Assembly (NCBI GenBank): GCA_040757035.1
Contig: JBFLYM010000004.1
Coordinates: 1-57,350, forward strand
Origin: Candidatus Micrarchaeota archaeon
GTDB taxonomy: Archaea; Micrarchaeota; Micrarchaeia; Anstonellales; Bilamarchaeaceae
Reading direction: 5' to 3'
Length of the DNA stretch: 57,350 nt
This document shows positions 11,142 to 54,147 of the stretch, one piece after another. The position numbers and the translations under genes were made by a program. The first letter of the stretch is position 1, and each line of letters begins with the position of its first letter. The notes beneath the pieces are model-generated. The model made no database searches. It had not been told where the DNA came from and saw only the letters and a program-made list of their open reading frames with translations.

Positions 11142-11191
11142 GTTTTTGAAGAGCTTGAGCTAAAACAACAGTTGTTTATGGAAGCGTTTTC
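11142..11191. repeat. Dispersed repeat R4, copy a (50 nt)
   Basis: gtttttgaagagcttgagctaaaacaacagttgtttatggaagcgttttc matches 46260-46309 in direct orientation with 3 mismatches. It contains the near-palindrome aaacaacagttgttt. Confidence 0.8.
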
Positions 11192-11257
11192 ACTATCGCG
11201 CTTTGCGTGCGTGTAGCGCGAACCAAGACAAGTTAGGTATAACAGGTTTTACGACAT

Positions 11258-11399: not shown

Positions 11400-11456
11400 T
11401 AAAAGCGCGCGCGTTTTGTAAAGTCAAGTAAAAGCGCGTACGTTTTGTAAAGTCAA
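11399..11456. repeat. Tandem 29-bp repeat x2 (plus a partial third start)
   Basis: gtaaaagcgcgcgcgttttgtaaagtcaa (11399-11427) is followed directly by gtaaaagcgcgtacgttttgtaaagtcaa (11428-11456), then gtaaaa. There are no spacers between the units. Confidence 0.9.
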
Positions 11457-11465
11457 GTAAAAAGG

Positions 11466-11538
11466 AGTTATCACCAGTTATCAAAAAAGAGCTAAATTTT
11501 GATAACTCTTGATAATTCTTGATAATTCTTGATAACTA
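11466..11538. promoter_or_regulatory. Iteron-like array: 2x AGTTATCA, then 4x TTGATAA(C/T)T in the opposite orientation, at 10-bp phasing
   Basis: agttatca occurs at 11466 and 11476. ttgataactc, ttgataattc, ttgataattc and ttgataacta occur at 11499, 11509, 11519 and 11529. The two sets face each other across an A/T-rich spacer. Confidence 0.5.
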
Positions 11539-11549
11539 GGCCTAAATTT

Positions 11550-16907: not shown

Positions 16908-16959
16908 GAATAATAAAAACACCTGCAGTTTTTTAAACTATCTTTTCTTATTAACTGAT

Positions 16960-18201: not shown

Positions 18202-18258
18202 AAGGAGGGTCAAGATGATATCAAAATACAAAACAAATTATGAATAAAGAGAGATTTT

Positions 18259-21122: not shown

Positions 21123-21140
21123 ATTTTACAGGTTTTATAA

Positions 21141-22073: not shown

Positions 22074-22137
22074 AAAATGGATATAAAGGGTTGGCATAAA
22101 AAATTGATATTAAAAGTTGGCATAAAGGGTGACATAA

Positions 22138-23136
22138 ATGGATGTTTCGTTATTTTGCAGTGACACACTTCCAAACTTTCTCACAACTGAAATATTGCCA
22201 ATTACAATGATTGCCGCTGTTCTTTTTTCCATGATTATTGGAATAACTTTTGCATTGTCTCAAGCAACAAGCAATCCAAAGCTTTCTGTCTGGTCAAAAA
22301 TAGAGATTATGCAGCTTATATTCTCCACAGCTTTTGTGTTAATTCTTTTGGAGATAATAGCTTCGTTTTGCACGTTTAGCACCAATGATATCGCAATGCT
22401 CACAGGTAGTTCTGCACCTACACCAGCACTACCTGTCTATGATGGGGCTGAAAAATATTTGGTTCAAAGCGCAGCGTATTCTAAAGTCGCAATGATCAAT
22501 GCACGCTATTATTTAGGTGTGATAAATGTTCAAGAAATGGTTTCAACCTGGAAATGTCCAGATTGGTGTTTTTTAACAGTCGGCGGTACAGGAGCTTCTG
22601 CTTCACCAAACGCCGGCAGTTCAATGTTTTCATCCGCGTTTATGCTGCTTCTTAATTCTTCGCTTATGTCATTCATGTCATCATTCATGCATATTTTCTT
22701 CCTTAAGTATATTCAATCAGGACTTTTCCTCTTTCTTTTTCCACTTGCCATAATAACGCGTTCGCTTCCGTATTTGCGAACATTTGGCGCTGTTATACTT
22801 GCGGTTATTTTCGCGTTTTATGTAATATACCCATCAATTCTTGCAGCGTTCTATGTCTCGCTTTCTGATTCTATGGTTCCGCCTGTTATGAAAAATGAGG
22901 ACGAACTTAAACAGAAAGATTTTGATTTTGGTGCGGCGTTGTGGGGAGATAACCCAGTTAAATTAAGCGTGTCCGCGAGCGATATTGGTGACGTTTCTAA
23001 TTCTGCTGCAAAGGCGTTCTTTTATTCGGTGTTTTTGCCTACTGTTGCATTACTCGCCACAGGCGCTGCAGCAACATATGTTTCGCGTCTTATGGGCGAA
23101 GATATTGATCTAAGTAGATTAACTCAAATGATATAA
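22138..23136 (+). CDS. Polytopic membrane protein, paralog P5
   Basis: The N-proximal motif is TSNPKLSVWSKIEIMQL, the core is ITRSLPYLRTFGAVILAVIFAFYVIYP, and the tail is GEDIDLSRLTQMI. Confidence 0.7.
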   Translation: MDVSLFCSDTLPNFLTTEILPITMIAAVLFSMIIGITFALSQATSNPKLSVWSKIEIMQLIFSTAFVLILLEIIASFCTFSTNDIAMLTGSSAPTPALPVYDGAEKYLVQSAAYSKVAMINARYYLGVINVQEMVSTWKCPDWCFLTVGGTGASASPNAGSSMFSSAFMLLLNSSLMSFMSSFMHIFFLKYIQSGLFLFLFPLAIITRSLPYLRTFGAVILAVIFAFYVIYPSILAAFYVSLSDSMVPPVMKNEDELKQKDFDFGAALWGDNPVKLSVSASDIGDVSNSAAKAFFYSVFLPTVALLATGAAATYVSRLMGEDIDLSRLTQMI

Positions 23137-23176
23137 ATAATATAAATATATCCAAACATAATCAAACATAATTGCG

Positions 23177-24253
23177 GTGTACATACATATGGTATATTAT
23201 CCGACCACATGGGAAGCAGGACCTGGTTGCGATGTTGGTCTATTCTGCGAATGGACAAGTAGCTGGGAACCCATAATCATGCTATCCATGATGACCATTT
23301 TCTTTATGTATGCAATAATATATATGTTGTCATATTTTCTTCAATCAGAAGAACTCAAAAGAAGCGCAAAAAGTCATCTTTTGGATGCTGTTTTTACCGC
23401 TGCGCTCGCGGTGTCAATAATTTTGATAATGCAACAGACGTTTACTTTTATACAGGATTATTTCAGAACGACTGGCGCGTCTGTTTATTGCGATTTATAT
23501 GGAAAAATCAGTTTGGATAATGGCGCAAGTCCGTTTGATCTTATGAAATGCAGACTGATTGAAAAAGCATCTGCTATTTCTGTGATATATGAACGCGTAT
23601 ATGCTGCATCAAGAGAACCGTTCAAAAAATTTAGTTTGATATGGGGTCTTGCGGGTCTTCCAATCTACTCACAAGGTGCGTATATGTTTCAATCAGGTAT
23701 TTCAGAATTATACCGGGAAATAGAAAGTTACCGACTTCTTGCGCATGTTTGCGTAAGCCTTCTCATCGCCATAAACGCGTATATTGGCGCAATAGATTAT
23801 GTTTCAATGAATATGCTCAGAATGTTTTTACCTATGGGAATAGTGCTCCGCGCAATACCGTTTACGCGAAACATAGGCGCGTTTTTTATTTCTGCCGCGA
23901 TAGGATTGTATATAATTTATCCTCTTCTTTTTGTTATTACAGATCAAACCTTTGTTTCAACTCCTGGTCCGTATGTTGATATTACCGATATGAGCGACAC
24001 TTCGCTTCCATGGCCGTCATTTAACGGCGCGGTGTCATTGCTTACCATTGGTCCGCAATCGTACACATCATCGCAAATTTTCAGTTCTATGGATATAAAG
24101 CAGGGATCAGCCGAACTCGCAAATCTTTATTACGGACTTATACTTCAACCAATAGTAATTTTAAGCATAACGCTTATTTTTATACGCTATCTAACATCAT
24201 TGTTCGGTGGTGAAGCACAGGAATTGTTTAGATTGGCCAGTAAGGTTGTTTAG
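23177..24253 (+). CDS. Polytopic membrane protein, paralog P6
   Basis: The core motif is LRAIPFTRNIGAFFISAAIGLYIIYP and the tail is GGEAQELFRLASKVV. The start is GTG 23177 or ATG 23189. Confidence 0.7.
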   Translation: MYIHMVYYPTTWEAGPGCDVGLFCEWTSSWEPIIMLSMMTIFFMYAIIYMLSYFLQSEELKRSAKSHLLDAVFTAALAVSIILIMQQTFTFIQDYFRTTGASVYCDLYGKISLDNGASPFDLMKCRLIEKASAISVIYERVYAASREPFKKFSLIWGLAGLPIYSQGAYMFQSGISELYREIESYRLLAHVCVSLLIAINAYIGAIDYVSMNMLRMFLPMGIVLRAIPFTRNIGAFFISAAIGLYIIYPLLFVITDQTFVSTPGPYVDITDMSDTSLPWPSFNGAVSLLTIGPQSYTSSQIFSSMDIKQGSAELANLYYGLILQPIVILSITLIFIRYLTSLFGGEAQELFRLASKVV

Positions 24254-24255
24254 CC

Positions 24256-27200
24256 ATGAATAATATGAAAGATATAGAGAATATGAACAATATAAAGAAT
24301 ATGAAAAATACAAACAATACAATTATGAATATGAAAAGTTCGGTTTTTGTCTGCTTGTTTGTGCTATTGTTTATTTTATCTGGATGTTATGCCCCAAATA
24401 TGCAAGGTCCGTGCTGCACAATAAACACAAGCAACCCAAACACTGTAAAGTGTATGCTCACGAATCCTGTAGATCCAACTACTAGCATTGCTCCGTCACC
24501 AGAAATGTGCAATGGTTCAATAGTAAGTAACGGTCTTATGTGCAATACAGATTGGTGCGCGACAGCAGAACCATCACAAAACGAGACAATTTATGTAAAA
24601 TATGATATAAATGGGCGCCACGTTCTTAACTGTACTGGTGTTTCGCTGAGTAATAAGAGCGAACCATGCAACAATATTGGATATTGCCACATTATATTTA
24701 CAAACATCACCAATAACAACAATACCTATGCGTTTTATCCGCAGTGCAGCAATAGGGCAGAGCTTGCTTTTGATACCAATTGTAAAACCATGCTATGCGG
24801 AAACATACAATATTCACCAAAGCAGTCTCTTCTTCCTGAATATGGAAAAAACATGACGTATCAAAATCTAAAAACCACAGCAACCCAAATGCTCTATGCT
24901 GCTACATGTAATTTTTATACTCTTGATGCTCCAACAATGAAAAAACTAAAAAGGGCAAAGGATGTTTTTGTTAATACATTTAGAATAGGCTTTGGAAATT
25001 CAATATCAGATTTTGAGGAAGCGCGTCTTTATTTTCCACTTAGCGATAAATTTTGCAGGACGGCGCAAGGAAAAGATAGATATATGAATTATCTTAATGT
25101 TAGTTTTACCGCAAGCGGTTACTTTGATTGGTGGCAGTATTATTCGCACGAAAAATGGAAAACCTGGCATGCTGATAATGTAACCGTTAATTCGTTTGAT
25201 CCATCCACAATTATAAATCGTTCTGTTGCACTTGGATGTAACACAAGCGTTCGTAATTTGAGTTCACATGAAACAATGAATTATAAGGAATTTCCGCCTG
25301 CTGCATCAAGCGGAAATTATTTTCTTAAAATATTTAATGAATCATATATTCCAGCAACGTATATAATGCCTGATACAGAAAGATATAAATACGAACTTTA
25401 TAGAAATTATTGGGATAAAATATACAAAACAAATCTAAATGATTCGGCTCCTACTCTTATACAAAATTTTTCGCATTTTGAATGCAATTCTTCATTTGAT
25501 TGCGTTTCTGGGTTATGCACAAAGCAGGATAGCGGGTATGAGCGCGGTTTTTGTACGCGCAGCGATGGCAACGTAACAAATTGCATGTGTTATGAAGTTG
25601 GTTCAAGATTGCGACCAGGAAATGAAGTGCGTTGTGAAGCGTTTGAAAATTCAAATACATTCAGACCATTAACTACCAATTTATGCGAAATTAGATATCA
25701 TGAAAAAAGTGGTTCATGTAAGAAGAAGTGCGAAGGTTTTCCACCAGAATGCACTCGGACCTGCAGCGGCTACAAACCTAAAACTGGGTGTAGTGGTTTT
25801 TTTTATGTGGGGGATACATGTACATATGACGAACCATACATGAATTGTACGGATATAATCAATGCACCGCAAATAGTTTTTTTCAATCAAACTATAGAAG
25901 GATATAAAGGTTATGCAAGAATGAACGAACCCGAGTTTCAGCGCTCAATGTTAGCGGCCAGTTGCGGACCATTTGTAAAAGGAACTGATTATAATGTTGC
26001 AAACTATTTGCCAGACTACAATATAGCGACGAATAAAGATCGTTGGGCGTGTGCAAACAGTGAATGGAGAACCAAAGGAGTATGTACTAAGACTTATAAA
26101 GAGTTAATATTATTTAAAACACTTGGTAAGTGCACAAAAGATGATCAAAAGCCAGAAGCGAATTTTCTGAATGTTAGCAATGTTTATGGATGGTGCGAAC
26201 CATGTACGCATGCGACTATGGTTTCTGTGAATTTGGATGATTATTATAAGGCATATAATGGTTATTATTTCGGATGTTATTCATCATACCCCGGCGGTGA
26301 AAGTTGCGGATGTGGAGCAGCAGTTGGCGGTCTTCCATGCGGCACAATGTCGAACTATATGGACAGCGTTGCGAATATTAGAACAAGAATAGATAATTAC
26401 TTAAAAACAGGAGTAATGCCTATAATTTGGTATATGAGCAATAGCAGCAATCTTGGCACAACCTGGACATATTCTGGAGGATATTATACAGTGTGTCATA
26501 GATGCAACAATGCACCAACCGATGCTGCTCGAACAACAATAATAAACACTCTAAAAAGTTATAATCCAATATATTCTGCTGATAGTACCAATAAATTTTT
26601 TGACAATTTCAATGCTTGGTGTTATTATAATGATTGGACATCGTGTTCGTGTCACAATAAACCATGCGAATGTAGTGGCCCTTACCAAGCAAAGCAACAA
26701 TCCAGTAATCCTTCTGGAGAGACATATATTGGAGAGAGAACAGAAAATAAAGAAGCACTATCTTTCAAATGTCATGCGTGTGATCACCATGCACATGATA
26801 CTTTTTGTAATTGGGGCATGGGTTATCATTTCCTCAAAAATGCAATAGGAAACAGTGCATCAATAGTAGTTATTGCATCGTCAGTTGATGGAAAAAACGC
26901 AACTACTATAGCTACGCGCGCGACACAACTTAAAACCGAAAATTGCCCAAATTGTTTGGCTGCGCTCTATGTGCCAAAAATGAACACAACACGACTGGAT
27001 GAAATTTTTGGCTGCACAGATCAGTATAATTGCAAAATAAGAGGCAATGACGCCTGGAAAAACATAGACATCATTCTTTATGATGATAGAATAAACGATT
27101 ATACTGGGATTGATAGAAATTTGGCGATATTGGAAGGTGTGGCAAACAAAAGCAGACAGCTTCTTTTGCGCTATTCAAAACCGAGTATTCCTTTAATTTC

Positions 27201-28017
27201 AATTGATGACAGTTATTTAGGATGGTCGCTTTACAACAATACATTCGAAGCAATGAAATATTTACTGGAAAATCAAACCGAATTAATAAACAGTGGAGCA
27301 ATATCACTTTATTTCAGAACATGGTATGGTTCCAGCACAAACACCAGCACTGTTGTTACAGCGCAAAATAGTACAAATAGGTTGCCAACATCAAAAGATG
27401 AAAAATTCTGCGGAATTGAACGTGCTATGGTCAATTATTTATATCAGAATTTAATAAAAACGGTTTATAATAAAATAACCGCGGTGAATTTAAGTGATGC
27501 AAAATGCGAAGAGTGCACATCAACAGATCACTTTTTTGGTCTATGCAATCGCACATGCGAAAATGGAGTTGAATGTGAATTGTCTCCTAATATGGACGCA
27601 AATAACGCGCGCTGTCCAAGAAACACCGTGATAAACCCCTGCACGCTTTGCAACGATTCTATCTATTCAAACAGAATTATTACCTGCAATTATTCATATT
27701 CGGATGGAACAATTGACTCGCATGATTACACTTATAATGATTTCTCCACTATTAGTACATTCGATATGTATGCGGATATAATTTCCAGTCTTCCAAAACA
27801 GGACAAATGCTGTATGGCAAGCGGTGATGAAGAAGGAACGCAACAAAATTATACTTACATAAAAATAAGCGGTGAAGGAACTGCAACAAATCCAATCCGC
27901 TTTGCCGCATGGGGAAATGAAACCATTGATTGTAGCATGAACACAGATACCAGTTCATTCTGCAACATCACGCTTCCGATAAAAAATTATAAAATAAATT
28001 GTGCGGTGCAAAAATGA
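24256..28017 (+). CDS. Giant Cys-rich, sequon-rich secreted protein with a lipobox-like signal (1253 aa)
   Basis: An Asn/Met-rich leader is followed by VFVCLFVLLFILSGCYAP, a lipobox-like L-S-G-C. Cys pairs are dense throughout (for example CKKKCEGFPPECTRTCSGYKPKTGCSG), and there are many N-x-S/T sequons. I see no C-terminal TM. It starts 2 nt after the P6 stop. Confidence 0.75.
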   Translation: MNNMKDIENMNNIKNMKNTNNTIMNMKSSVFVCLFVLLFILSGCYAPNMQGPCCTINTSNPNTVKCMLTNPVDPTTSIAPSPEMCNGSIVSNGLMCNTDWCATAEPSQNETIYVKYDINGRHVLNCTGVSLSNKSEPCNNIGYCHIIFTNITNNNNTYAFYPQCSNRAELAFDTNCKTMLCGNIQYSPKQSLLPEYGKNMTYQNLKTTATQMLYAATCNFYTLDAPTMKKLKRAKDVFVNTFRIGFGNSISDFEEARLYFPLSDKFCRTAQGKDRYMNYLNVSFTASGYFDWWQYYSHEKWKTWHADNVTVNSFDPSTIINRSVALGCNTSVRNLSSHETMNYKEFPPAASSGNYFLKIFNESYIPATYIMPDTERYKYELYRNYWDKIYKTNLNDSAPTLIQNFSHFECNSSFDCVSGLCTKQDSGYERGFCTRSDGNVTNCMCYEVGSRLRPGNEVRCEAFENSNTFRPLTTNLCEIRYHEKSGSCKKKCEGFPPECTRTCSGYKPKTGCSGFFYVGDTCTYDEPYMNCTDIINAPQIVFFNQTIEGYKGYARMNEPEFQRSMLAASCGPFVKGTDYNVANYLPDYNIATNKDRWACANSEWRTKGVCTKTYKELILFKTLGKCTKDDQKPEANFLNVSNVYGWCEPCTHATMVSVNLDDYYKAYNGYYFGCYSSYPGGESCGCGAAVGGLPCGTMSNYMDSVANIRTRIDNYLKTGVMPIIWYMSNSSNLGTTWTYSGGYYTVCHRCNNAPTDAARTTIINTLKSYNPIYSADSTNKFFDNFNAWCYYNDWTSCSCHNKPCECSGPYQAKQQSSNPSGETYIGERTENKEALSFKCHACDHHAHDTFCNWGMGYHFLKNAIGNSASIVVIASSVDGKNATTIATRATQLKTENCPNCLAALYVPKMNTTRLDEIFGCTDQYNCKIRGNDAWKNIDIILYDDRINDYTGIDRNLAILEGVANKSRQLLLRYSKPSIPLISIDDSYLGWSLYNNTFEAMKYLLENQTELINSGAISLYFRTWYGSSTNTSTVVTAQNSTNRLPTSKDEKFCGIERAMVNYLYQNLIKTVYNKITAVNLSDAKCEECTSTDHFFGLCNRTCENGVECELSPNMDANNARCPRNTVINPCTLCNDSIYSNRIITCNYSYSDGTIDSHDYTYNDFSTISTFDMYADIISSLPKQDKCCMASGDEEGTQQNYTYIKISGEGTATNPIRFAAWGNETIDCSMNTDTSSFCNITLPIKNYKINCAVQK

Positions 28018-31000
28018 AAATGAGCAGGACATTGTTATCATTAAATAATGGTTTTAATAATAGCTTTTGTTCATCTGTTATGTTTACACTAATATTTATA
28101 CTAATATTTACGCTAACTTTTATATTACCGGCATGTGCTAATGCAATTACAGTTACGCAAAATCCATCTTCAGATTTATTTGTAAATCCTTCAGGAAATT
28201 TAAATTACACTCAGAATATTTTTTTTAATTGGAGTGTAAGCGAACAAGTGCAAGGAACATGCACATCTAATTGTACTTTGAATGGCGACAATTACACGTG
28301 CGTCCCATGCACGCCAGGAATATATGGCGATAGTCCATGCAATAGCAAATGCACAGTATACCCTTATCCCAATTCAAACTCATGCACTGTTTCATGCGCT
28401 TCAGGAGAAAATGTTAGTTGCAATTCCTGCACCCCACCCACTCCTGAAGATAATAATTGCAGTGCAACATGCATCAACGAAACTAATGGTGATGTATTGT
28501 GTATCGATATCTGTCATGTTTCGCCTAGTGCCTGCACAGGAAGTTGTAATCTTCCTCCTGCAGCAACATGCAATTTGTCGCTCGATAATGAAGTAAAAAA
28601 AACAATTCCTGTAACAGAAGGCACGCCATTATTTGAATCGTATTCACCAATTTCTGAATGTGTATTGCATCCATGGAATATAAATTGCTGGGATGGATTT
28701 GGGCAATCGCAAATATTCAACTCTTTTACAATTTACTCCGCTACCTCAGCGACGCCAACTTTAATCAATCAAAATATTGAAATTGAACATCAAAGAGGCG
28801 GAACGCCAATAACGTTTAATTGGAGTATGGAAGGGGGAGGATGTAAAGGTACAAATGTTAGTTGTAGTATTATAATCCCAGGCGCAAATATTGTTTCAGA
28901 ACAAACCGCATGCACGATTGGTAATTTGTGCTCTGCAACCGTTGTACTCCCAGATTCGTTCGCATGCAATTCAGATTGGTATGTGAGTTGCATTGACACT
29001 GCAGGACAAAACAGTTCAAGCGCAATTGGCAGTATAAATGTACTTATTCCGCATTGTATTAATATTCAAACCAATCAATCCCAGCCAATTTGTAAAATTT
29101 CGCAGAATTTGAATGCAAGCGGTAGCGATTGTATCTCCTTAAATAATATCAATTCACCTCAATTGGATTGCAGTGGTCATTTAATTACTGGTTTAGGAAC
29201 AGGAAGCGGAAGCAGCGGCATAAGCATACGCAATTCATCAAAAGCCGTACTTAAGAATTGCGGTGTATATTTGTTTGAAAATGGAATTGAAATATTGGAT
29301 TCTAACTCTGTTTCTATTTCAGATTGCGAAATGGCGAGTTGCTCTGCTGGACTCTATGCAAAAAATGCAGATAATATTGTCCTGGCTTCAACATCGTTTA
29401 GCGACAATACTTTGGCGGCAATTATAAAGAATTCTGATAACGTTGTTTTGGATGATGTTGATATAGGCGATAACGAAAATGGAGTTATTTTTGACCATGG
29501 CGATAACATAACAATAAATAAAATGGATGCAAAAAACACCAATTCTTCATATGCGATAAATTTTACTTCTGTAAACGTAGCGCGCGTGAGTGGTTCTGAA
29601 TTCTGGAAGAACGGTAATGCTGATGAAGAGGAAGAAAGTAATGCGAGTTCTAGCGGTGGAGGTATATTAATAGATTCATCAAATGGTGTCAGCATAGAAA
29701 ACAATGCATTTGATTCTGATACAATCTCAATAAATGTAATCGGAAGCGCTTTTAACACCACAATATCCAAAAATACTATCACCAATAGTATATCAGGAAT
29801 AGTTGCTTCTGATTCAAGCAACTCAATAACAATAAAAACAAATAATATAACAAAATGTACAACAGGACTGATGTTCGATAGCGGTTCTTCTGATGTAATG
29901 TTTTATAACAATATATTGGATAATGAACTGAATGCGGTTGTAGACACCGAATCGGTTTCTGCTTCATTAAGCGAACCGGATGAAAGCCAAACCAATATTT
30001 TAGGATGCGGTGCGTTGGGTGGAAATGCATGGTTTTCTCAAGGAAATGGTTTTTCAGAAAACTGTTCTAATTTTGATAACAATTGTTTTTGCGATGAAAA
30101 TTATTCTATTGATGAAATTGTAACAGATTTATTTCCACTCACTATAAATAAAGGTCTTGAATTTTCTGTTTTAATAAGTTCAATAGCTGGTAAACAGGCT
30201 GGTAGTTATGAACAATACATAAATAAAGAGTATGTCGCGGCAACTCCTTATATTCCTGCCCTTGTGGTTATAAACCTAATAACTTCACACGATGCTGAAT
30301 TTTTTTGCAATTCTTCACTTGGGGGCAATGTAACAATAAACACTACTTTATCCACAGAAGGCATAATAAATGTTACAAAGCCAGTTGGGTGCTATAATAT
30401 CACAGTGAAATGCGCGATCAATATTACAAATGCAAGCTCGCAAGAACATACCTTTTGCATAGACGATGTTCCTCCTGCGATCAATTTTGGAATAAGACAG
30501 AATATAAGTGGTATAATAATTAATCCGAACGATAATGAAATTTTGAATAAGCATTCGTTCAGGCTTAATATGTCTGCCGATGATTCGCTATCAACGTTTG
30601 TTGCAATGTGTATATTTGAACTGAATGATACAAACGAAATCTTTTTGCCAGAAACCAATGCTGATGGGCGGCAGTATTGCGTAAAAAAAAGAACTTTGCA
30701 AAATGGAACCTATAAGTATAGAATGTTCGCTGTTGACGCTGCGGGAAACGCCGCATCAACTGGCTATAGAACTGTGATAGTAGATGCGCCTCCTTCTAAC
30801 GCAGGCTGTTCGGAATGCGAAAACATAGGCGATTATTTCAAAAGCGGTATTTCAAGCGCTATAGATGAAACCAATAAAAAAATAGCATTAATTCTTTATA
30901 TGGAAAATTTATCAGGGCATAGAATAGCGATGCCTGGTGCACCTGTGCTTGTGTGGGTGAAAAACGCGAGCTACGAAAATTTAAGCAAAGTTGTAACCAA

Positions 31001-34000
31001 TGCGAATGGAAGCGCTTATTTTAGTTATGCCCCATGGAACAACAGTGCGATGGATTATACATTTATATATTGCTGTTTTTATGAAGATTGCGGTTTTGAC
31101 AAATGCCTGATTGGCGCAAAAGTAAGCGCAAACTATATTAAAAAATACGGTATTTATGATGTTAATAGCGTTCCTGATGCATCGCCTAATCAACCAAATA
31201 TTAATTATTCGCAAATTTATGTTCTTCCTATAAACGAAAAATTGAAAATAAATCCTAAAGTAGATAAAAATCTGCTTGAAGGCAGTGAAGCGCTTTGTGT
31301 TCCGATATTTATGCTATTTGGAATTCTTCTCGCGGCTCTTTATTATAGCGGAAGAAATCCGCTTGGATTTATAGATTTTTCTCCGTTGCGCATGAGCAGT
31401 CATATAAGATACACTCCAAGAGGCATGCAAACAGGGGTTAAGATAACTACGACTACATTAAGGACCCTTGATTCGGTACGAAAAATGGGAAAAAGAGGCG
31501 ATGATGGTAAAGAGACTAAATTCTCATTCAAAAACATTGCAAAAGCAGATAAGGTGACGTTCACGAATATCAAAGATGGAATCGGCATGATTAAAACTAT
31601 TGTTAAAGGGCATAAAAAAGAATCTTCCACCGATGGAAAAGGACCTTCCACTATACAATCATGGCGAATAGCTCTTTTCAGTGATAAAAGTGGTAAAGGA
31701 CAAACAACAGGAGGAGGAGCAGCAACAGGAACAAGCGATCAACAACCCGGTGTAATGTCTGGAGATAATATCTATAGAACAACAGGTGGAAGACAAGCAA
31801 GTGGGTTAATAGGTGTTCTTGCATTGTTTGGGTTAATGACCGGTGGAATGAAAGGAGGGGTAAAAGGAGGGGCACTAGCAAATTTCCTAGAAATAGCGAA
31901 TACGCAGTGGGATGTAATGAGTGCTGATTACCAAAGGAGATCTAAACACAAATGGCTAAGTTATGTGCCTCTTTTTGTCCTAACATACAATACAATTAAA
32001 GAGATGGTAGGTGCTGCCGCAAGGGACGTTCTTCATGTAAAGGAAAGTTGGAAAGAACGGAGTAGAAAAAATGCTTCAGAACAAAAATTACAAACAAAAG
32101 AAGTTTTAGATGCCACTCCACCTAAAGGAACTACAGATAAACCACCGAAAGAATATGTTGTTGAATTAGAGAAAGATCAATATAAAGTTCAAGTTATTAA
32201 TACAGAGGATAAAAAATCAATTAATGTAGTTTTTAAGGATGGTAAAGTAGTTATAGATCCAGAAATCGTAGATGCTGTAGTTAATAGATTGAAGGCAAAC
32301 GATAATAGAGCATATGTAGCGTATCAACAAGAACTTGAAGCTGCAAAAGCAGCACCGAAAACAAAAACAGTGGAAACAATTGTACAAGTTTCTGAAAAAA
32401 AATATTCCAGTGCTCCACAAACTTTTGAAGTAGCAAAAGTTTCGTATGGAGGATGGAAAGAACACGAAGTTTTGGAAAAAGGAGACAAAGATAGCAAGGA
32501 TTCTCATAAAATAAAAGAGCTTCAAATGTTGCTTAATTGGATGATTGACAACAAGATAATTGAGGGCAAAAAAATATCACAAAATGAAATGGGCACATTC
32601 GGAGCAAAAACAGAAGCGCTTGTAAAAGCAGCGCAAATTGCTGGAGAAAAATTTGTTGATAAAAATGGTATGATATCTGGCAGCAATATAAAATATGATG
32701 CTCCGAGAGATGGCAAAGTCGGAATAGAATTTATGTCTATGTGCAAAGCAATTACCAATGAAACACATACTATAGAAAAAACAATCAAAAAAGAAGAATC
32801 AATTAGTCCTCCTCCTATTAAAGAAGATACCCCTCGTACATTCGGAGAAACCAATTTCTACGGAACTAAAATTGAAGAAAAACAAGATATATCAATAGGC
32901 GACCATAAAGGTGTGTCGCAAATGAGAATAAATGCGGGGATAGAGAAATCAATAGAAAAGCTTCCAGAATGGTTAAAAAAGAGAGCTATGGATATGCAAA
33001 GCCTTTATGAACAAAGTACAATTGGAGGTACAGGAGGAGATGTTGCGAAAGGATTTGCAGGAGCAGTTGGCGAATCTCTTGAAGCTTTTGGACTTGGCAT
33101 AATTAATGATATGATAAAACATAAAATGACGCCTGATCAAGCACAGGAAAAAATAGATATACTTTTAAAGCGAGATAATGAAGGAAAAACGCATTTAGAG
33201 AAGCTTATGGTGGCACCTAATCCAGATGTTCATCTTAAAACTATACTCGGAGGCGATGGAAAACCGGTATTCAAAAGCGTTGGTGAATTTTATCAAGCGG
33301 TATCGATAACAAACGAAGAATACTACAAGAAGACAGAATCTTGTATTGCCGCTATGATGGGAAAGCTTAAGGACCAATCAAGTCAGAATGAAACATATAA
33401 TGAGATTAAAAAAATTTATGACTTAGAAAAAACCGATCCAAATTTATATTCAGTGCGGAAGAATGAGTATGAAAACAAGTATGAATATGATGAAATGGGA
33501 AATATACAACGCCGCAGCCGCAATATGTTTAAAGATATTAGAGGGCTTATGCCTGATAAAGATGAGACTTCTAAGGAATTTGACGCCGTCTATGAAAAAC
33601 AAAAACAACTCGGTCATCTTGAGAAGAGTTTTAATGCTTATATTGCTAATGAAATGATATATTTAGATGCTAATTACACAATAGAAAAAACCAAGAAGGA
33701 ATTGGAGAACCTCCAGGCCTCCACCAACTCAGATGAATTTAATAAAAAAGTAGAAGAAATAACCAAAAATGCAAAAAGGGTAGTTTTAATTCAAGATGAA
33801 GATCCAATTCTTACAGAAGCCAAAAAAGAATTTATTACTATGCGAGATAGTCCACCTAAATCCGATAAAGAGCATCTACAAAAACTCGCCATGTTAAAAA
33901 ATCCTGAAGTATATCTTAATTATAAACAAAGTAGCTTTGTTCTTAGTGGAGTTAACCAGTTGCGCGAAGAGATGAGAAATGCAGCAGATATTTTTAATAA

Positions 34001-34007
34001 AAAATGA
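28014..34007 (+). CDS. Giant transmembrane protein: Cys-rich ectodomain with parallel beta-helix (PbH1-like) repeats, TM segments, and a ~900-aa Cys-poor Lys/Glu-rich tail
   Basis: ATG 28014 overlaps the upstream stop as ATGA; the track opens at GTG 27999. It has a signal/TM and CxxC-rich modules. PbH1-like repeats appear (ISIRNSSKAVLKNCGVYLFENGIEILDSNSVSISDC...NIVLASTSFSDN...). A TM segment reads ALCVPIFMLFGILLAALYY, followed by a long charged C-terminal region. Confidence 0.75.
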   Translation: MKMSRTLLSLNNGFNNSFCSSVMFTLIFILIFTLTFILPACANAITVTQNPSSDLFVNPSGNLNYTQNIFFNWSVSEQVQGTCTSNCTLNGDNYTCVPCTPGIYGDSPCNSKCTVYPYPNSNSCTVSCASGENVSCNSCTPPTPEDNNCSATCINETNGDVLCIDICHVSPSACTGSCNLPPAATCNLSLDNEVKKTIPVTEGTPLFESYSPISECVLHPWNINCWDGFGQSQIFNSFTIYSATSATPTLINQNIEIEHQRGGTPITFNWSMEGGGCKGTNVSCSIIIPGANIVSEQTACTIGNLCSATVVLPDSFACNSDWYVSCIDTAGQNSSSAIGSINVLIPHCINIQTNQSQPICKISQNLNASGSDCISLNNINSPQLDCSGHLITGLGTGSGSSGISIRNSSKAVLKNCGVYLFENGIEILDSNSVSISDCEMASCSAGLYAKNADNIVLASTSFSDNTLAAIIKNSDNVVLDDVDIGDNENGVIFDHGDNITINKMDAKNTNSSYAINFTSVNVARVSGSEFWKNGNADEEEESNASSSGGGILIDSSNGVSIENNAFDSDTISINVIGSAFNTTISKNTITNSISGIVASDSSNSITIKTNNITKCTTGLMFDSGSSDVMFYNNILDNELNAVVDTESVSASLSEPDESQTNILGCGALGGNAWFSQGNGFSENCSNFDNNCFCDENYSIDEIVTDLFPLTINKGLEFSVLISSIAGKQAGSYEQYINKEYVAATPYIPALVVINLITSHDAEFFCNSSLGGNVTINTTLSTEGIINVTKPVGCYNITVKCAINITNASSQEHTFCIDDVPPAINFGIRQNISGIIINPNDNEILNKHSFRLNMSADDSLSTFVAMCIFELNDTNEIFLPETNADGRQYCVKKRTLQNGTYKYRMFAVDAAGNAASTGYRTVIVDAPPSNAGCSECENIGDYFKSGISSAIDETNKKIALILYMENLSGHRIAMPGAPVLVWVKNASYENLSKVVTNANGSAYFSYAPWNNSAMDYTFIYCCFYEDCGFDKCLIGAKVSANYIKKYGIYDVNSVPDASPNQPNINYSQIYVLPINEKLKINPKVDKNLLEGSEALCVPIFMLFGILLAALYYSGRNPLGFIDFSPLRMSSHIRYTPRGMQTGVKITTTTLRTLDSVRKMGKRGDDGKETKFSFKNIAKADKVTFTNIKDGIGMIKTIVKGHKKESSTDGKGPSTIQSWRIALFSDKSGKGQTTGGGAATGTSDQQPGVMSGDNIYRTTGGRQASGLIGVLALFGLMTGGMKGGVKGGALANFLEIANTQWDVMSADYQRRSKHKWLSYVPLFVLTYNTIKEMVGAAARDVLHVKESWKERSRKNASEQKLQTKEVLDATPPKGTTDKPPKEYVVELEKDQYKVQVINTEDKKSINVVFKDGKVVIDPEIVDAVVNRLKANDNRAYVAYQQELEAAKAAPKTKTVETIVQVSEKKYSSAPQTFEVAKVSYGGWKEHEVLEKGDKDSKDSHKIKELQMLLNWMIDNKIIEGKKISQNEMGTFGAKTEALVKAAQIAGEKFVDKNGMISGSNIKYDAPRDGKVGIEFMSMCKAITNETHTIEKTIKKEESISPPPIKEDTPRTFGETNFYGTKIEEKQDISIGDHKGVSQMRINAGIEKSIEKLPEWLKKRAMDMQSLYEQSTIGGTGGDVAKGFAGAVGESLEAFGLGIINDMIKHKMTPDQAQEKIDILLKRDNEGKTHLEKLMVAPNPDVHLKTILGGDGKPVFKSVGEFYQAVSITNEEYYKKTESCIAAMMGKLKDQSSQNETYNEIKKIYDLEKTDPNLYSVRKNEYENKYEYDEMGNIQRRSRNMFKDIRGLMPDKDETSKEFDAVYEKQKQLGHLEKSFNAYIANEMIYLDANYTIEKTKKELENLQASTNSDEFNKKVEEITKNAKRVVLIQDEDPILTEAKKEFITMRDSPPKSDKEHLQKLAMLKNPEVYLNYKQSSFVLSGVNQLREEMRNAADIFNKK

Positions 34008-39503: not shown

Positions 39504-40079
39504 TCACGCCTTTTTTTTCTCGTTCTTTTCAACCTTTGCTTTTTTCATATTTTCCTCAAACCATTCTGTTTTTCCAAGTCCTCCTGCCCTCATGGTTAAA
39601 CCTATCTTTGTATCGTTTATTGATGATTTAATGCTTACAGTGGATACCTTAAGAAAGAGAATATCATCTTTTTTTATATTTTTCTTTCCGTGAGAATAGA
39701 GACTTTTATTTTTTTTGTCGTAAAAGAATTTTTCACCTGAAATTTGAGAAAGATGAAGGAGAGCATCGAAAGGACCTATATTGGTAAACGCTCCAAATTC
39801 AACTATTTCTTTTACTACCGATTCAAAAACTTCATTAACCGAGGTATTAAAAACAAGAGCATCAAATTGGACGTTGTAATAGATGTTCGGATCCCCTGGA
39901 ACAATAACTCCAGGGCTTACAATCTCAATATTATCAATGCTGAGTATAAGACCAATTTCCTTATATATCCTCCTTTCATAGGCGTCTCTCAGAACTTTTT
40001 TTGCTGCATTAGTAATATTCATAGTTAACATGCTTGGATGGATACGAATTTTTTCCTCTATGTTCATCAGGTAGTACAT
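39504..40079 (-). CDS. rpoE: DNA-directed RNA polymerase subunit E' (Rpb7-like, S1 domain)
   Basis: 191 aa. The N-terminal Rpb7 fold pattern is IRIHPSML...VLRDAYERRIYKEIGLILSI, followed by an S1-like region (VVKEIVEFGAFTNIGPFDALLHLSQI). It forms the typical rpoE'-spt4 pair. Confidence 0.85.
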   Translation of the reverse strand: MYYLMNIEEKIRIHPSMLTMNITNAAKKVLRDAYERRIYKEIGLILSIDNIEIVSPGVIVPGDPNIYYNVQFDALVFNTSVNEVFESVVKEIVEFGAFTNIGPFDALLHLSQISGEKFFYDKKNKSLYSHGKKNIKKDDILFLKVSTVSIKSSINDTKIGLTMRAGGLGKTEWFEENMKKAKVEKNEKKKA

Positions 40080-40117
40080 AAATAGGTCACCTAATCAAAA
40101 ATATTTGAACGGATATA

Positions 40118-40190
40118 GCAACTCAACAAAGTAATTCAGAAAGTACCAAAAATTAGTACCGAGAATTATCGCATGTTGATTTACCATATA
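40118..40190. repeat. Hairpin-type repeat related to the long hairpin inside tRNA-Leu intron 3
   Basis: 40124-40145 caacaaagtaattcagaaagta is the exact reverse complement of 52775-52796. Flanking bases show weaker similarity, and both copies have an imperfect hairpin arrangement. Confidence 0.7.
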
Positions 40191-40287
40191 CAATCCAGTT
40201 TTTAATGGATTAGTATATATATACATAAAGTTTAAATACTTCCTCCTAAAATGAAGGGTTTTTAAATTCTTACAAAGAAACTTTTTT

Positions 40288-40956
40288 ATGGCAGTACATA
40301 TTAATACTGACGAAATAAAGCATCTTGATTGGAAAATAAAAATACTTTGGGCGCTCAATGCAATAATATTTGCGTTATTTATGTGGCTGTCTGCCTCAGC
40401 AATTGCGTTGTATGCATTTCCAAGCGATTTATTTGGAATACCAAATGCGTTATACACATTTATGTTCTTAATGCTCATAGGAGCAATATTTATGCCTTAT
40501 CTTGTATGGACCGAATTAAGATATAGAAATTATACCTATTATCTTTCAGAAACCGAAATAACAATAAGACGCGGTGTGTTGCGTATTGAAAGAATATCAA
40601 TTCCATTTGAAAAAATACAAAATGTAAATGTATCTCGTTCAATTCTTGAAAGAATTCTTGGACTTGCAACGATAAAAATAGAAACAGCAGGAAGTAATCC
40701 ACTTGAAGCAGAGGGTTTTTTGCCTGGAATAAATAATTATCGCGAATTGGTAGATAAAATTACCGAACGAGTAGAACGCGTACGCGCGCCAAAAATACCT
40801 GCAATAAAATCATTCAATGAGGAAAAATTAATGGAAGAGATAGTTAGCCTTAGAGCAGAGTTGCACGAATTGAAAGAATCCTATGAAAAAAAGGAAAATT
40901 ACTCCCGTCACCCACATTTGAAAACGAAAAGTATAAAAAGTCCAAAGGAGAAGTAA
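40288..40956 (+). CDS. Membrane protein with a bacterial-type PH domain (bPH_2/YdbS-like)
   Basis: Two N-terminal TM segments are followed by ITIRRGVLRIERISIPFEKIQNVNVSRSILERILGLATIKIETAG, which fits the bPH_2 pattern. Confidence 0.6.
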   Translation: MAVHINTDEIKHLDWKIKILWALNAIIFALFMWLSASAIALYAFPSDLFGIPNALYTFMFLMLIGAIFMPYLVWTELRYRNYTYYLSETEITIRRGVLRIERISIPFEKIQNVNVSRSILERILGLATIKIETAGSNPLEAEGFLPGINNYRELVDKITERVERVRAPKIPAIKSFNEEKLMEEIVSLRAELHELKESYEKKENYSRHPHLKTKSIKSPKEK

Positions 40957-44933: not shown

Positions 44934-46136
44934 ATGGATCCAGACCAAAAAGAAGCTATAATTAAAAGATGGCAGAATTTTCCAAAAACATTTGCAAGGG
45001 AGATTGAAGATGAGATTTTGCCTCTTACTAAAAGCAAAAATGCCATTTTTCTGTATGGCCCACGCAGAGCAGGCAAGTCGGTTATATCGCAGAGACTGTT
45101 AAAAAAATCCGAAGGGACCATAAGATATCTAAACTTTGATGACCCCGCGCTACCTGCCAAATTAGCCAACCAGGATATAGAAGAATTGTGCAGCGATTTA
45201 TCCAAAGGCTCAACTGTTGTATTAGATGAAGTTCAAAACGTCGATGGGTGGGAGAAGTGGGTCAGAGCAACTGTTGATACTGTGAGATTCCATCTTATAG
45301 TGACCGGATCTTCAGCAAAATTGTTATCAAGCGAATTCGCAACGACCCTGGCGGGAAGAGGGATAGGATTTTTGATCTTACCACTTTCTTATAAGGAATT
45401 CAGACAACATACTGCCAATAAAAATTTTGAGGATTACCTAAGTCTTGGCGGTTATCCTGAAGTAGTTTTAACACAAAACAAATTAGAAATGGAAAAACTA
45501 TGGGATGCTTATTTTGACCTGGCAATTGTAAAAGATGTCATAAACAGATATTCTGTCAGAGATCCGCAAGCCCTGAGGTCGCTTGCAGTATACCTGCTAA
45601 CAAACTCGACAAAAACGATTAGCTTCAGGTCGTTGAAAGGAGCCTTGGGTATTTCGTTTGATGCAATACGACAATATCTGGATTATCTTGAAACCGCGTT
45701 TCTTCATTTTACCGTTCCATTTTTTGCCTATTCGTTAAAAAAATCCATGGAATGGCCTAGAAAAACATATAGCTGGGATCTTGGATTACAAAGCAGAATA
45801 TCTAGATCTTTTTCTCCGGATATAGGGCGAAAGACTGAAAATGCCGTTGCAATTGAATTAAAGAGAAGAAATTTTGAAACATATTACTGGAAGGGCGAGA
45901 AAGGTCTGGAAGTAGATTTTATAGCCAGAAAGGGGCCAGAGATTTTACCGATAAATGTTTCATACACTGATAAACTAGCGGAAAGAGAGACGAAAGCTTT
46001 AGAAGCTTTTATGGAAGAGCATAAATTGAAATATTCTTTGGTGCTTTCAAAAACAAAGAAAAGTGAGACAATAAAAACCAGTGGTAATGGCAAAATAAAT
46101 ATTAAAAATATCGAAGACTGGTTATTACATCGGTAA
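44934..46136 (+). CDS. AAA+ ATPase of the COG1373 type (AAA_14 plus DUF4143-like), paralog 3 of 3
   Basis: 400 aa with Walker A GPRRAGKSV and Walker B VVLDEVQ. The TATA-like ctttataaata lies ~27 nt upstream of the ATG. Confidence 0.8.
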   Translation: MDPDQKEAIIKRWQNFPKTFAREIEDEILPLTKSKNAIFLYGPRRAGKSVISQRLLKKSEGTIRYLNFDDPALPAKLANQDIEELCSDLSKGSTVVLDEVQNVDGWEKWVRATVDTVRFHLIVTGSSAKLLSSEFATTLAGRGIGFLILPLSYKEFRQHTANKNFEDYLSLGGYPEVVLTQNKLEMEKLWDAYFDLAIVKDVINRYSVRDPQALRSLAVYLLTNSTKTISFRSLKGALGISFDAIRQYLDYLETAFLHFTVPFFAYSLKKSMEWPRKTYSWDLGLQSRISRSFSPDIGRKTENAVAIELKRRNFETYYWKGEKGLEVDFIARKGPEILPINVSYTDKLAERETKALEAFMEEHKLKYSLVLSKTKKSETIKTSGNGKINIKNIEDWLLHR

Positions 46137-52045: not shown

Positions 52046-52447
52046 ATGCGCAAAAATTATTTGCACAAAATAACAATAATTGACTTTGGTACACCAAAAT
52101 CAGAAAGTATAGATGATGAATTAAAATGGATATGCGAATCCTTTGATTTGGACCCAAAAAAGAAAGCACTTGCCTTTGAAATATTTTTATATCTTCTAAA
52201 CGCAAGCCGAAAAGGTAAGGGAGTAAAAACCTCTGAAATAATTAAAGATATAGATGTAACTCAAGCTGCAATAGTATATCATATGAATATTTTTTTGTGT
52301 GCGGGAATAGCATCTAAAAAAGGGCGAGTATATTATTTACGCGGGAAGAGTTTAAGCGAGACTATATATGAAATTGAGCTTGACATGGTGAGAAGAATGC
52401 ACGCGATTAGAAGAATAGCAGAAAAAATAGACGAGCAGTTGTTATAA
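52046..52447 (+). CDS. Small winged-helix (ArsR-like) putative transcription regulator, divergent from grpE
   Basis: FEIFLYLLNASRKGKGVKTSEIIKDIDVTQAAIVYHMNIFLCAGIASKKGRVYYL has an HTH plus wing pattern. I use the internal ATG at 52046. The track ORF opens at 51914 in AT-rich spacer. Confidence 0.45.
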   Translation: MRKNYLHKITIIDFGTPKSESIDDELKWICESFDLDPKKKALAFEIFLYLLNASRKGKGVKTSEIIKDIDVTQAAIVYHMNIFLCAGIASKKGRVYYLRGKSLSETIYEIELDMVRRMHAIRRIAEKIDEQLL

Positions 52448-52485
52448 TTTTCTTAGATTAGCAATTATTGCTCATTTAGAAACCT

Positions 52486-52540
52486 GACTGCCACGATTTA
52501 TTGCGGTCTATTACTAAAAAACCGCAGAGTTAAGGGTTAA
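52486..52540. repeat. Dispersed repeat R1, copy b (frame-broken relic of the gene end seen at 76-132)
   Basis: See copy a. A 2-nt deletion breaks the reading frame of the original. Confidence 0.8.
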
Positions 52541-52614
52541 GATTTAAAGCATAAGCTTCAACTATGCGCGTTTTGCAAAGTCAGATCTGAAAAATAAAAT
52601 TGCAGGGAGCAAGA

Positions 52615-52677
52615 TTTTCTTTTTGGGGTTAACCCCTTAGACCTTTTTCTTTTAGAAAAAGAAAAAGGGATATGGGT
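52615..52677. repeat. 63-nt direct repeat, copy a (3' end of tRNA intron 3)
   Basis: ttttctttttggggttaaccccttagacctttttcttttagaaaaagaaaaagggatatgggt matches 52827-52889 with 1 mismatch (62 of 63 positions). It contains a 12-bp AT hairpin and a GGGG-N4-CCCC hairpin. Confidence 0.9.
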
Positions 52678-52826
52678 CCGAACCGCGGAGGGGAGTACCC
52701 CTCCCCAGTTTGAGGTGTCATGAACGACGATTCGTTCATGAACATATAACAAACCAAACACGGTAATTCTTCGATACTTTCTGAATTACTTTGTTGGTTT
52801 GTCATATCATCCTGACCCTCCCCCAT

Positions 52827-52889
52827 TTTTCTTTTTGGGGTGAACCCCTTAGACCTTTTTCTTTTAGAAAAAGAAAAAGGGATATGGGT
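52827..52889. repeat. 63-nt direct repeat, copy b (5' end of tRNA intron 3)
   Basis: See copy a. It abuts exon 3, on the 5' side of the T-loop. Confidence 0.9.
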
Positions 52890-53097
52890 TTGAACTTGCG
52901 CAGCCGCTAAGACACAGGGTTTCTAAACATTTTTTTTGTTCGCTCTACAGTTTTGGTGTCGCGAATCCATCCATTCCAAAACCGAAAACACTAAACTGAA
53001 AATATCCCTAAGCCCTGCGCGTATAGTCTCTATAACCCAAAAAAATAGGAAACAGATTTGACCTGGCTCCGCCATCCCTGCACAAATAATACAAATA

Positions 53098-54147
53098 TTA
53101 CTCTCGACAATTTCCAAATTGAGTTGTCACGGTACTATTCAGTGTAGTATTGCATTCCGAAGGTAAAACATTAAATGCTTTGCACACAGCAATTTTTATT
53201 TCCTCTGGAGTGTACGCATCAACATTAGCTATTTTACCATTTATCACAAATGTTGGCGAACCTCGCACACCATATTGCTTATTTAAATCTTTTTCAACAG
53301 GGAATTGCGGATAGCGAGAAGCAATCCAACTAGACTTATCGTTATATAGATTGGTAATATTATATTCCGCATCAGTTGAATTATAACATGCATCAAACTT
53401 AGTTTTATTTATTTTTGAACTGCTAAAGCAAAGTGTGCTATTTATATTAGTTACAAAACAAGAAAGATACTCCCAATATTTTGATTCTTCTTCTTTTTGT
53501 ATACAATATTGTCTTAGATTCTCTTGAAGCTCCCCTGAGTCTGGATGCATTATATAATCAACAAATCTTATTTTAAAATCTGCCTTTCCTTTTAGAAAAT
53601 TTTGAACCGGTAAAATACCTTTCTCAGCCTGAATACCATATGGGCAATAACTCATTACAAAAACTTCTACCAAGGGTTTATCTGATTTAACGATTTGAAA
53701 TGAATCATTTTGTTTAGCTTGCAAAATTTGAGCTTCTAATTGTTTTATTTTTTCAGCAAATACATCCAATTCTTCTGCGTTGCTATAGATATATTGAAGA
53801 TTTCGCGATACTGGAATGAGTATGGCCCTATTTTCATCATCAGAAAAATTCAATAATACAAATTCGCCATTGTCTTTTGCATTATTAAACTTAAGTGTAA
53901 CATTTTGACTATATTGTACACGTATAAATGCTTCAATAGTTTCTTTAACTTTTAAAATTTTTTCTTGCGAAAATTGAGTGTTTTGTATAAAAGTATTATT
54001 TGTTATTTGTATGATAGTTGTATTGTTAGCAGGTTGAAAAGGATTACTCATAGGCCAAATATTAATACATCCAATAACAAATATCATTATTATCGCTAAT
54101 GCATAAACCGTAATTATATTCTTGTTTATTTTGCTCATATATACCAT
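53098..54147 (-). CDS. Membrane-anchored, extracytoplasmic thioredoxin-fold (DsbA-like) thiol:disulfide oxidoreductase
   Basis: It has an N-terminal TM anchor (IITVYALAIIMIFVIGC). The redox motif CPYG sits in VFVMSYCPYGIQAE. The C-terminal YGVRGSPTFVINGK resembles the DsbA/thioredoxin cis-Pro region. Confidence 0.6.
   Translation of the reverse strand: MVYMSKINKNIITVYALAIIMIFVIGCINIWPMSNPFQPANNTTIIQITNNTFIQNTQFSQEKILKVKETIEAFIRVQYSQNVTLKFNNAKDNGEFVLLNFSDDENRAILIPVSRNLQYIYSNAEELDVFAEKIKQLEAQILQAKQNDSFQIVKSDKPLVEVFVMSYCPYGIQAEKGILPVQNFLKGKADFKIRFVDYIMHPDSGELQENLRQYCIQKEEESKYWEYLSCFVTNINSTLCFSSSKINKTKFDACYNSTDAEYNITNLYNDKSSWIASRYPQFPVEKDLNKQYGVRGSPTFVINGKIANVDAYTPEEIKIAVCKAFNVLPSECNTTLNSTVTTQFGNCRE

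Follow-up and report, generated by a model that had tools for sequence, protein, structure and literature searches.

A locus of 481 nucleotides (nt) on the minus strand of the 57,350-nt stretch of DNA analysed here (contig JBFLYM010000004.1 of assembly GCA_040757035.1, hereafter the window) is probably a functional tRNA-Leu(UAG) gene of a tiny, uncultured archaeon of the Micrarchaeota (DPANN) that is interrupted by three bulge-helix-bulge (BHB) introns. The four minus-strand segments that an original prediction had joined to a canonical class II tRNA proved exact to the base (Table 1): together they form an 86-nt molecule, which ARAGORN calls as tRNA-Leu(tag). The perfectly paired stems, the loops and A73 claimed at that stage were all recovered in the spliced product, with 23 of 23 pairs formed, the anticodon loop CUUAGGA and the T-loop UUCAAAU, and the 7-bp acceptor stem and long variable arm of a class II tRNA-Leu are present. 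The conserved bases U8, G18G19, U33, GUUC, A58 and C61 are kept as well. Exon 4 pairs perfectly with exons 3 and 1 over a distance of 274 nt, at columns that are variable across the family, and the GC content is 60% in the exons versus 29–41% in the introns. The sequence of exon 1 is identical in the independent Logan contig L064. On the unspliced locus ARAGORN gives no tRNA, and Rfam yielded nothing at gathering threshold in the window and no tRNA-like match at E<=10 between positions 52300 and 53400. Since ARAGORN and Rfam are thus silent on the genomic locus, the expectation that standard tRNA finders would miss this gene holds. No other tRNA was found in the 57-kb window by ARAGORN with introns allowed, BLAST with the exons, a scan for GTTCRAR or a scan for GC islands. 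CUA codons are used at a frequency of 6.3 per 1000, indicating that a tRNA-Leu(UAG) is needed somewhere.

Table 1. Features of the candidate tRNA-Leu(UAG) locus and the splicing endonuclease family unit in the window.
Feature	Position	Strand	Description
Exon 1	53081-53058	minus	24 nt; acceptor 5' strand, D-stem 5' strand, D-loop to GGUCAA (tRNA positions 1 to ~21)
Intron 1	53057-53023	minus	35 nt; D-arm 21/22 or 22/23, junction slides by one A
Exon 2	53022-53007	minus	16 nt; D-stem 3' strand, anticodon stem 5' strand, anticodon loop to G37
Intron 2	53006-52921	minus	86 nt; canonical position 37/38
Exon 3	52920-52889	minus	32 nt; A38, anticodon stem 3' strand, long variable arm, T-stem 5' strand, T-loop UUCAAA (to 59)
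Intron 3	52888-52615	minus	274 nt; T-loop 59/60
Repeat copy 1	52895-52827	minus	69 nt; last 7 nt of exon 3 (GTTCAAA) and 62-nt unit
Spacer	52826-52684	minus	143 nt; hairpin A 52815-52736, hairpin B 52741-52718, hairpin C 52704-52687
Repeat copy 2	52683-52615	minus	69 nt; pseudo-T-loop GTTCGGA and unit; terminal AGAA AA forms H and bulge of the 3' splice site
Exon 4	52614-52601	minus	14 nt; U60, T-stem 3' strand, acceptor 3' strand, A73
tRNA-splicing endonuclease family unit	10417-10896	plus	159 amino acids (aa), TTG start, single unit; PF01974, E = 5e-12; directly after orc1/cdc6, 42 kb from the tRNA

The pairing between the exons lies far beyond what chance would produce. In an alignment of the spliced product with 11 intact or spliced tRNA-Leu(UAG) genes (12 genes), 99.3% of the cloverleaf cells were paired, whereas slid partners gave 35–60%, and compensatory changes on both sides were present in 12 of the 23 pairs. 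None of 500 shuffles reached the percentage paired, the two counts of compensatory changes or the covariation score; the count of further pair types was matched by 32 of the 500. Exon 1 begins 17 nt downstream of the end of a thioredoxin-like (Trx-like) gene, and orthologous loci were reached through synteny with this gene. In contig L010 (Micrarchaeota DR5_33_55), the same tRNA lies directly downstream of a Trx-like gene (40% identity between the neighbours) and contains introns in the D-arm (44 nt) and the T-loop (133 nt), at the same positions as in the window, and none at 37/38; the difference between the T-stems, GCAGG/CCTGC in L010 and GCAAG/CTTGC in the window, is compensatory. L067 (GCA_018813445.1) has a T-loop intron only, of 80 nt, with a complete hBHBh' motif (outer helix h, bulges B, central helix H and inner helix h'), and L065 and L068 contain the same gene without introns. 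The same gene thus occurs in a graded series with zero (L065, L068), one (L067), two (L010) and three introns (window), and Intron 2 at position 37/38 is not present in any of these four orthologues. The other Trx-like homologues P0005, P0006 and P0095 have no adjacent tRNA, and an exact-match scan of JGI metagenomes with the exon-3 pattern gave no match.

Upstream of the tRNA-Leu genes in L065 (6190-6320) and L067 (1700-1866), we observed fragments identical to the first 13 nt and the last 10–11 nt of the tRNA, embedded in small hairpins such as GCAGGGGTGGCGG...CCCCTGCG; relics of the att-site type or partial duplications might account for them. A 14-nt exact match to the 5' end of the tRNA (GCAGGGATGGCGGA) at positions 4853-4866 (plus strand) of the window, inside a mevalonate-diphosphate-decarboxylase-like gene (BLAST E = 0.014), is probably due to chance.

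All three introns are bordered by BHB-type structures, that is, either by two 3-nt bulges around a 4-base-pair (bp) helix or by one of the relaxed forms HBh' and hBH/BHL (BHL, bulge-helix-loop), and the helices that had been proposed for them are all present. Intron 1 has a relaxed HBh' motif with H = GGUC/GACU, bulges AA↓A and AU↓A (arrows mark the predicted splice sites) and h' = UCUGU/AUAGA, which is at the same time the minimum free energy (MFE) structure of the D-arm. For Intron 2, an hBHBh' motif is present with H = CUUA/UUAG including one U-U mismatch, bulges GG↓G and AA↓A and a 7-bp h' of AUAUUUU/AAAAUGU; MFE folding of the whole precursor prefers another register and is a poor guide for this BHB. 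Intron 3 conforms to a relaxed hBH motif in which the T-stem GCAAG/CUUGC represents the outer helix and UUC(A)/(A)GAA, with 3 bp plus A.A, the central helix, while h' is lacking, just as had been described. Its 3' site lies in a bulge AA↓U and its 5' site AA↓C in an open loop; the structure is the MFE fold of the T-arm with the intron, at a cost of +2.7 kcal/mol when the full precursor is folded. Other kinds of introns were considered as well. A C/D box small RNA (sRNA)-bearing intron was rejected, as the D box CUGA is absent from all three introns, where only one site resembling the C box RUGAUGA, with 1 mismatch, was detected, and no Rfam snoRNA match rose above noise. A group I or group II intron was rejected because there was no Rfam ribozyme match, either at gathering threshold in the window or at E<=10 in 52300-53400.

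Introns at the two non-canonical positions were also present in roughly a dozen of the fetched loci, with motifs that covary; a second metagenome scan with the shared tRNA 5' end gave 120 class II tRNA loci. In the D-arm class, introns follow right after GGUCAA, H reads GGUC/GACN, and the bulges are AA↓A and AW↓A; this class comprises L101, L132, L135 and L181 (32–109 nt) besides Intron 1 of the window (35 nt, GACU). In the T-loop class at 59/60, the T-stem forms the outer helix, H reads UUCA/UGAA, and the bulges are AA↓N and AA↓U; this class comprises L084, L126, L128, L144, L180, L186, L112, L010 and L067 (21–133 nt) in addition to Intron 3 of the window. Of the 10 introns compared in this class, that of the window has the greatest length, twice that of the next longest. 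In ARMAN-2 (Ca. Micrarchaeum acidiphilum), 56% of the tRNA genes are disrupted, with up to three introns per gene, and introns at 59/60 contain relaxed hBH motifs, one of which was cut in vitro by the archaeon's own endonuclease (PMC3239211). Multi-intron tRNAs, which the original prediction attributed to Thermoproteales and some ARMAN/DPANN lineages, are thus documented in Micrarchaeota themselves, including three introns in one gene and the position 59/60 (PMC3239211). Given the wide recurrence of the non-canonical classes in metagenomic class II tRNAs and the in vitro cleavage of a 59/60 intron of ARMAN-2, the gene belongs to a known kind, and the unusual trait of the locus in the window is the composite Intron 3 of 274 nt.

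The ARMAN-2 genes resemble this locus in belonging to the same phylum-level lineage, in their non-canonical introns including relaxed hBH introns at 59/60, in having no more than three introns per gene and in being missed by standard finders, but the 59/60 intron tested there was 13 nt long, in contrast to 274 nt with an internal 69-nt duplication in the window. In Thermoproteales (Sugahara 2008; Fujishima 2010, as cited in PMC4033280), three BHB introns can likewise occur in one gene, and related intron sequences are found there in different places, suggesting duplication or movement of modules. Thermoproteales belong to another superphylum, however, and the module discussed below is also located outside introns, as a tandem repeat in 3' trailers and, beside tRNA fragments, on the opposite strand. 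Archaeal tRNA introns were reviewed as 11–129 nt long with a median of 12–25 nt (PMC4090602). The C/D box sRNA-bearing intron of tRNA-Trp is likewise far longer than this median (PMC4090602), but it resides at 37/38, whereas Intron 3 is located at 59/60, contains no C/D boxes and owes its length to a duplication and a hairpin spacer.

The original prediction had rightly pointed out that Intron 3 is far longer than is typical, but it made no mention of two direct repeats of 69 nt within it, which are 96% identical, 212 nt apart and flank a hairpin-rich spacer of 143 nt. The 62-nt unit of these repeats consists, in this order, of CCCATATCCC, a 12-bp hairpin with a T-rich and an A-rich arm, TCTAAG, a GGGGTTCACCCC hairpin and AAAAAGAAAA. 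The two copies differ at GTTCAAA/GTTCGGA, TTCACC/TTAACC and A5/A4, and they share an identical stretch of 46 nt. Sequences homologous to the unit are found, in single copy, in the T-loop introns of L067 and L010, and an element in L065 is homologous as well. A MAFFT alignment of both window copies with L067, L010 and L065, together with BLAST matches, showed that Intron 3 shares with the conserved 59/60 T-loop intron of this tRNA-Leu(UAG) lineage the insertion point and a homologous core module of CCATATCCC, a poly-T/poly-A hairpin, GGTCTRAG, GGTTCACCCC and AAAAGAAAA. In L067, a full hBHBh' motif results from pairing of CACATATC, the 5' part of the unit, with GATATGGTG, which directly precedes UGGA-AA↓U. 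A relic of this ancestral 3' strand of the inner helix, GGATGATATG, is found in the window at 52812-52803, just after copy 1 and away from the splice site; it aligns with GATATGGTG of L067 and with GATGATATTG of L010, both of which lie just before 3' splice sites. With the relic stranded in the spacer and the A-rich end of copy 2 abutting exon 4, the ancestral 3' half appears to have been displaced and AGAA-AA↓U to be in use as a substitute. The length of Intron 3 would thus be caused by duplication of a conserved 62-nt module plus a spacer, and not by an unusual cargo.

No known RNA family was detected in Intron 3 by Rfam, even at E<=10, and its open reading frames (ORFs) of 65 aa and 67 aa are not called in the NCBI and Logan gene sets and have no records elsewhere. 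Hairpin A of the spacer has a paralogue at 40112-40207 (plus strand) of the window (local score 67 versus 27.5 +/- 4.7 for shuffles), and the two share a core of 22 identical nt, CAACAAAGTAATTCAGAAAGTA; the copy at 40112-40207 is intergenic, between rpoE' (39504-40079, minus strand) and a gene for a bPH-domain protein (40288-40956, plus strand), which suggests that the two hairpins may represent a small dispersed element. A homology of hairpin B to a trailer hairpin of L181 was not robust (score 36 versus 21.8 +/- 3.8 for shuffles, with a maximum of 44) and was not used. A nested tRNA sharing exon 4 was also rejected, because the pseudo-T-arm CGCGG-UUCGGA before copy 2 is unable to pair with exon 4.

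An assembly error in Intron 3 was considered as well; the true locus might then contain exon 3, one unit and exon 4, i.e. an intron of 62 nt, with the spacer coming from elsewhere, or the number of tandem copies might have been collapsed or inflated. The 46 identical nt common to both copies would favor such an error. Moreover, the spacer is spanned by one assembly only, the metagenome-assembled genome (MAG) contig L001 (NCBI contig JBMORY010000030.1, assembly GCA_049322435.1), to which the last 10.9 kb of the window are identical; of the Logan contigs built from the same reads, L064 breaks off 14 nt inside copy 1 and L002 begins 33 nt inside copy 2, and a search for an independent contig across the spacer found none. 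On the other hand, the copies differ at the defined positions given above, the Logan contigs agree with the window on the variant beside exon 3 and exon 4, with L002 linking the copy-2 variant (GGTTAACC) to exon 4, and 46 nt of identity are spanned by reads of 150 nt. An artefact would also need a free circle of 212 bp or a second locus, and tandem arrays of the same module type are present in the unrelated contigs L183 and L141, so that we consider an assembly error quite improbable.

Split and tri-split tRNAs of Nanoarchaeum equitans and Caldivirga maquilingensis are similar to this locus in that their pieces pair via the tRNA body, in their BHB-like cuts and in a break at the T-loop or another non-canonical position. 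A cis-encoded split tRNA would arise here if the T-rich hairpin of the unit ended a transcript of exons 1 to 3, exon 4 were transcribed from a promoter in the spacer and both were joined in trans at the T-loop. The unit contains TTTTTCTTTTT, A/T-rich TATA-like stretches occur in the spacer, and the module type forms a trailer directly after the tRNA 3' end in L128, L141 and L183, where a terminator would be expected. In contrast to known split tRNAs, however, the pieces in the window are adjacent and collinear on one strand within 481 nt. As L067 and L010 hold the same module in compact introns with an inner helix in cis, and T5 runs are also found in other introns of the set, joining in trans seems very improbable.

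Several observations weigh against a functional gene with three introns. The search for tRNAs covered the 57-kb window, and a second tRNA-Leu(UAG) could sit elsewhere in the genome. A T7 run in Intron 1 and T5 runs in the unit of the module could terminate archaeal transcription. The strict BHB register of Intron 2 lies +6.4 kcal/mol above the MFE and includes the U-U mismatch, and Intron 3, which lacks an inner helix, has the weakest central helix of the T-loop class (AGAA, 3 bp plus A.A) besides a spacer known from a single assembly. The only splicing endonuclease (EndA) unit in the window has Arg at the position of the catalytic His, while Tyr and Lys are kept. Finally, the syntenic tRNA-Leu of L010 (L010:5025-5288) has the loop CCUAGGA and thus C33 instead of the universal U33, and ARAGORN rejects its spliced product, which hints that copies at this locus can decay.

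Part of these observations would be explained if the gene in the window were a recent pseudogene, in which duplication and insertion in the T-loop intron displaced the 3' inner helix, exon 4 is no longer joined and another tRNA-Leu(UAG) serves the cell. Consistent with this, Intron 3 has the weakest H of the 10 T-loop introns, no h' and twice the next-longest length, its ancestral 3' helix strand has ended up in the spacer, and the T7 run, the C33 of L010 with its failure in ARAGORN and the partial tRNA-Leu fragments that litter the locus in L065 and L067 all fit a decaying gene. We nevertheless regard a pseudogene as unlikely, because the exons preserve all 23 cloverleaf pairs and the conserved bases listed above, in contrast to the freely diverged introns. 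In addition, the relaxed hBH motif is still the MFE structure of the T-arm, and cleavage of a relaxed hBH intron at 59/60 has been demonstrated for ARMAN-2 (PMC3239211). CUA codons are in use and there is no other tRNA within the 57 kb, which again argues for a functional gene.

Endonucleases that cut relaxed motifs have an (alpha-beta)2, an epsilon2 or a loop-bearing alpha4 architecture. Alignments of the EndA unit in the window to the solved enzymes of A. fulgidus, M. jannaschii and M. kandleri, from which the state of its catalytic site was deduced, suggest that it is probably a structural (beta-like) subunit. A catalytic EndA partner was not seen in the window. The endonuclease of ARMAN-2 is a three-unit epsilon2 enzyme of ~390 aa, which differs from the single 159-aa unit without the catalytic His found here. 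Endonuclease architectures vary among DPANN archaea, for which hidden disrupted tRNAs are expected and manual searches were called for (PMC5829648).

If the locus is functional, the whole 481-nt stretch would be transcribed into one precursor, and folding of the exons into the cloverleaf would bring the distant pieces together. Six cuts by an archaeal splicing endonuclease, each within a 3-nt bulge, would follow, and a ligase of the RtcB type would join the four exons to the 86-nt tRNA, which is predicted to read CUA (and CUG) codons. In this pathway, the relaxed HBh' motif of Intron 1 would be built on GGUC of the D-loop and Intron 2 would be excised from the canonical position, while for Intron 3 the T-stem would serve as outer helix and UUC(A) of the T-loop as one strand of the central helix. 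Judged from the comparison with its orthologues, Intron 3 may be an old, conserved T-loop intron of initially ~80 nt that grew to 274 nt by a partial tandem duplication with a period of 212 nt, which would have copied the 62-nt core module along with 7 nt from the end of exon 3. In the process, the original 3' inner helix would have been left in the middle of the intron, and the 3' site would now be provided by the A-rich end of copy 2.

A module of the same architecture, with a T-rich arm, an A-rich arm, a spacer and a second A-rich arm, also occurs outside T-loop introns. It is a trailer in L128, it stands at the start of the D-arm intron in L135, and in L065 the opposite strand carries a clear homologue that borders on a fragment of a tRNA-Leu end. 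In L183 (5685-6040, plus strand), five tandem copies of a poly-T/poly-A hairpin module of ~73 nt follow directly 3' of an intact tRNA-Leu, and in L141 tandem module repeats are found directly after tRNA-Leu genes at 8640-8480 (minus strand) and at the contig end. Each of the repeats in L183 and L141 carries a copy of the last few bases of the tRNA. L112 (plus strand) contains a tRNA with an intact body and one intron at 37/38, starting at 4816, and downstream of it two perfect tandem copies of the last 14 nt (U60 to N73). These extra copies lie 181 and 233 nt downstream of the tRNA 5' end, each preceded by a hairpin GTTCCAGCAAACAGCTGGAAC, ...CUGGAAC↓, and look like spare 3' exons in a context that resembles a 3' splice site. 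Taken as a pattern of sequences, such arrangements suggest that local duplication of the 3' region may feed the gain and growth of T-loop introns. More tentatively, and with the odds clearly against it, the 62-nt module might be a locally duplicating tRNA-associated repeat able to reside in 3' trailers as well as within genes, and 59/60 introns of these DPANN archaea might arise and grow when the 14-nt last exon is tandemly duplicated together with the trailer and the proximal copy is subsequently lost, which would turn the former trailer into an intron.

The remainder of the window is in line with a host from the Micrarchaeota. It encodes Cdc48, Orc1/Cdc6, Hjc, RpoE', eIF5A, S24e and a DnaK/DnaJ/GrpE operon at a GC content of ~36%, and the closest full-length homologues of the Trx-like protein next to the tRNA (41–48% identity) are annotated as Micrarchaeia or Micrarchaeota. 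Near orc1/cdc6 (9306-10385), a non-coding stretch of 650 nt without Rfam match (10897-11549) contains two copies of aaaagcgcgNNcgttttgtaaagtcaagt (~11400-11465) and four tandem copies of cttgataaYt (~11500-11540); these repeats could be origin-like. Three paralogous AAA_14/DUF4143 ATPase genes are located at 454-1785 (minus strand), 7928-9220 (plus strand) and 44934-46136 (plus strand). Two very large ORFs of 1253 and 2002 aa occupy 24256-28017 and 27999-34007 (both plus strand), and 16113-24253 contains a run of six ORFs (269–431 aa) without Pfam match.

Reports on DPANN MAGs routinely describe their tRNA sets as incomplete; the locus in the window is a worked example of a hidden gene. The two motif classes, GGUC/GACN after the D-loop and UUCA/UGAA at 59/60, could become search rules for further cases. 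If Intron 3 is spliced, its 274 nt more than double the published size range of 11–129 nt for archaeal tRNA introns, and a relaxed hBH site would work across a long structured insert. The orthologue series with zero, one, two and three introns, together with the duplicated module, offers a rare opportunity to trace the gain and enlargement of such introns. Should 59/60 introns indeed originate by capture of a duplicated trailer, the window would represent a snapshot of this process while it is running, with a duplicated junction and module, a stranded helix and an improvised 3' splice site.

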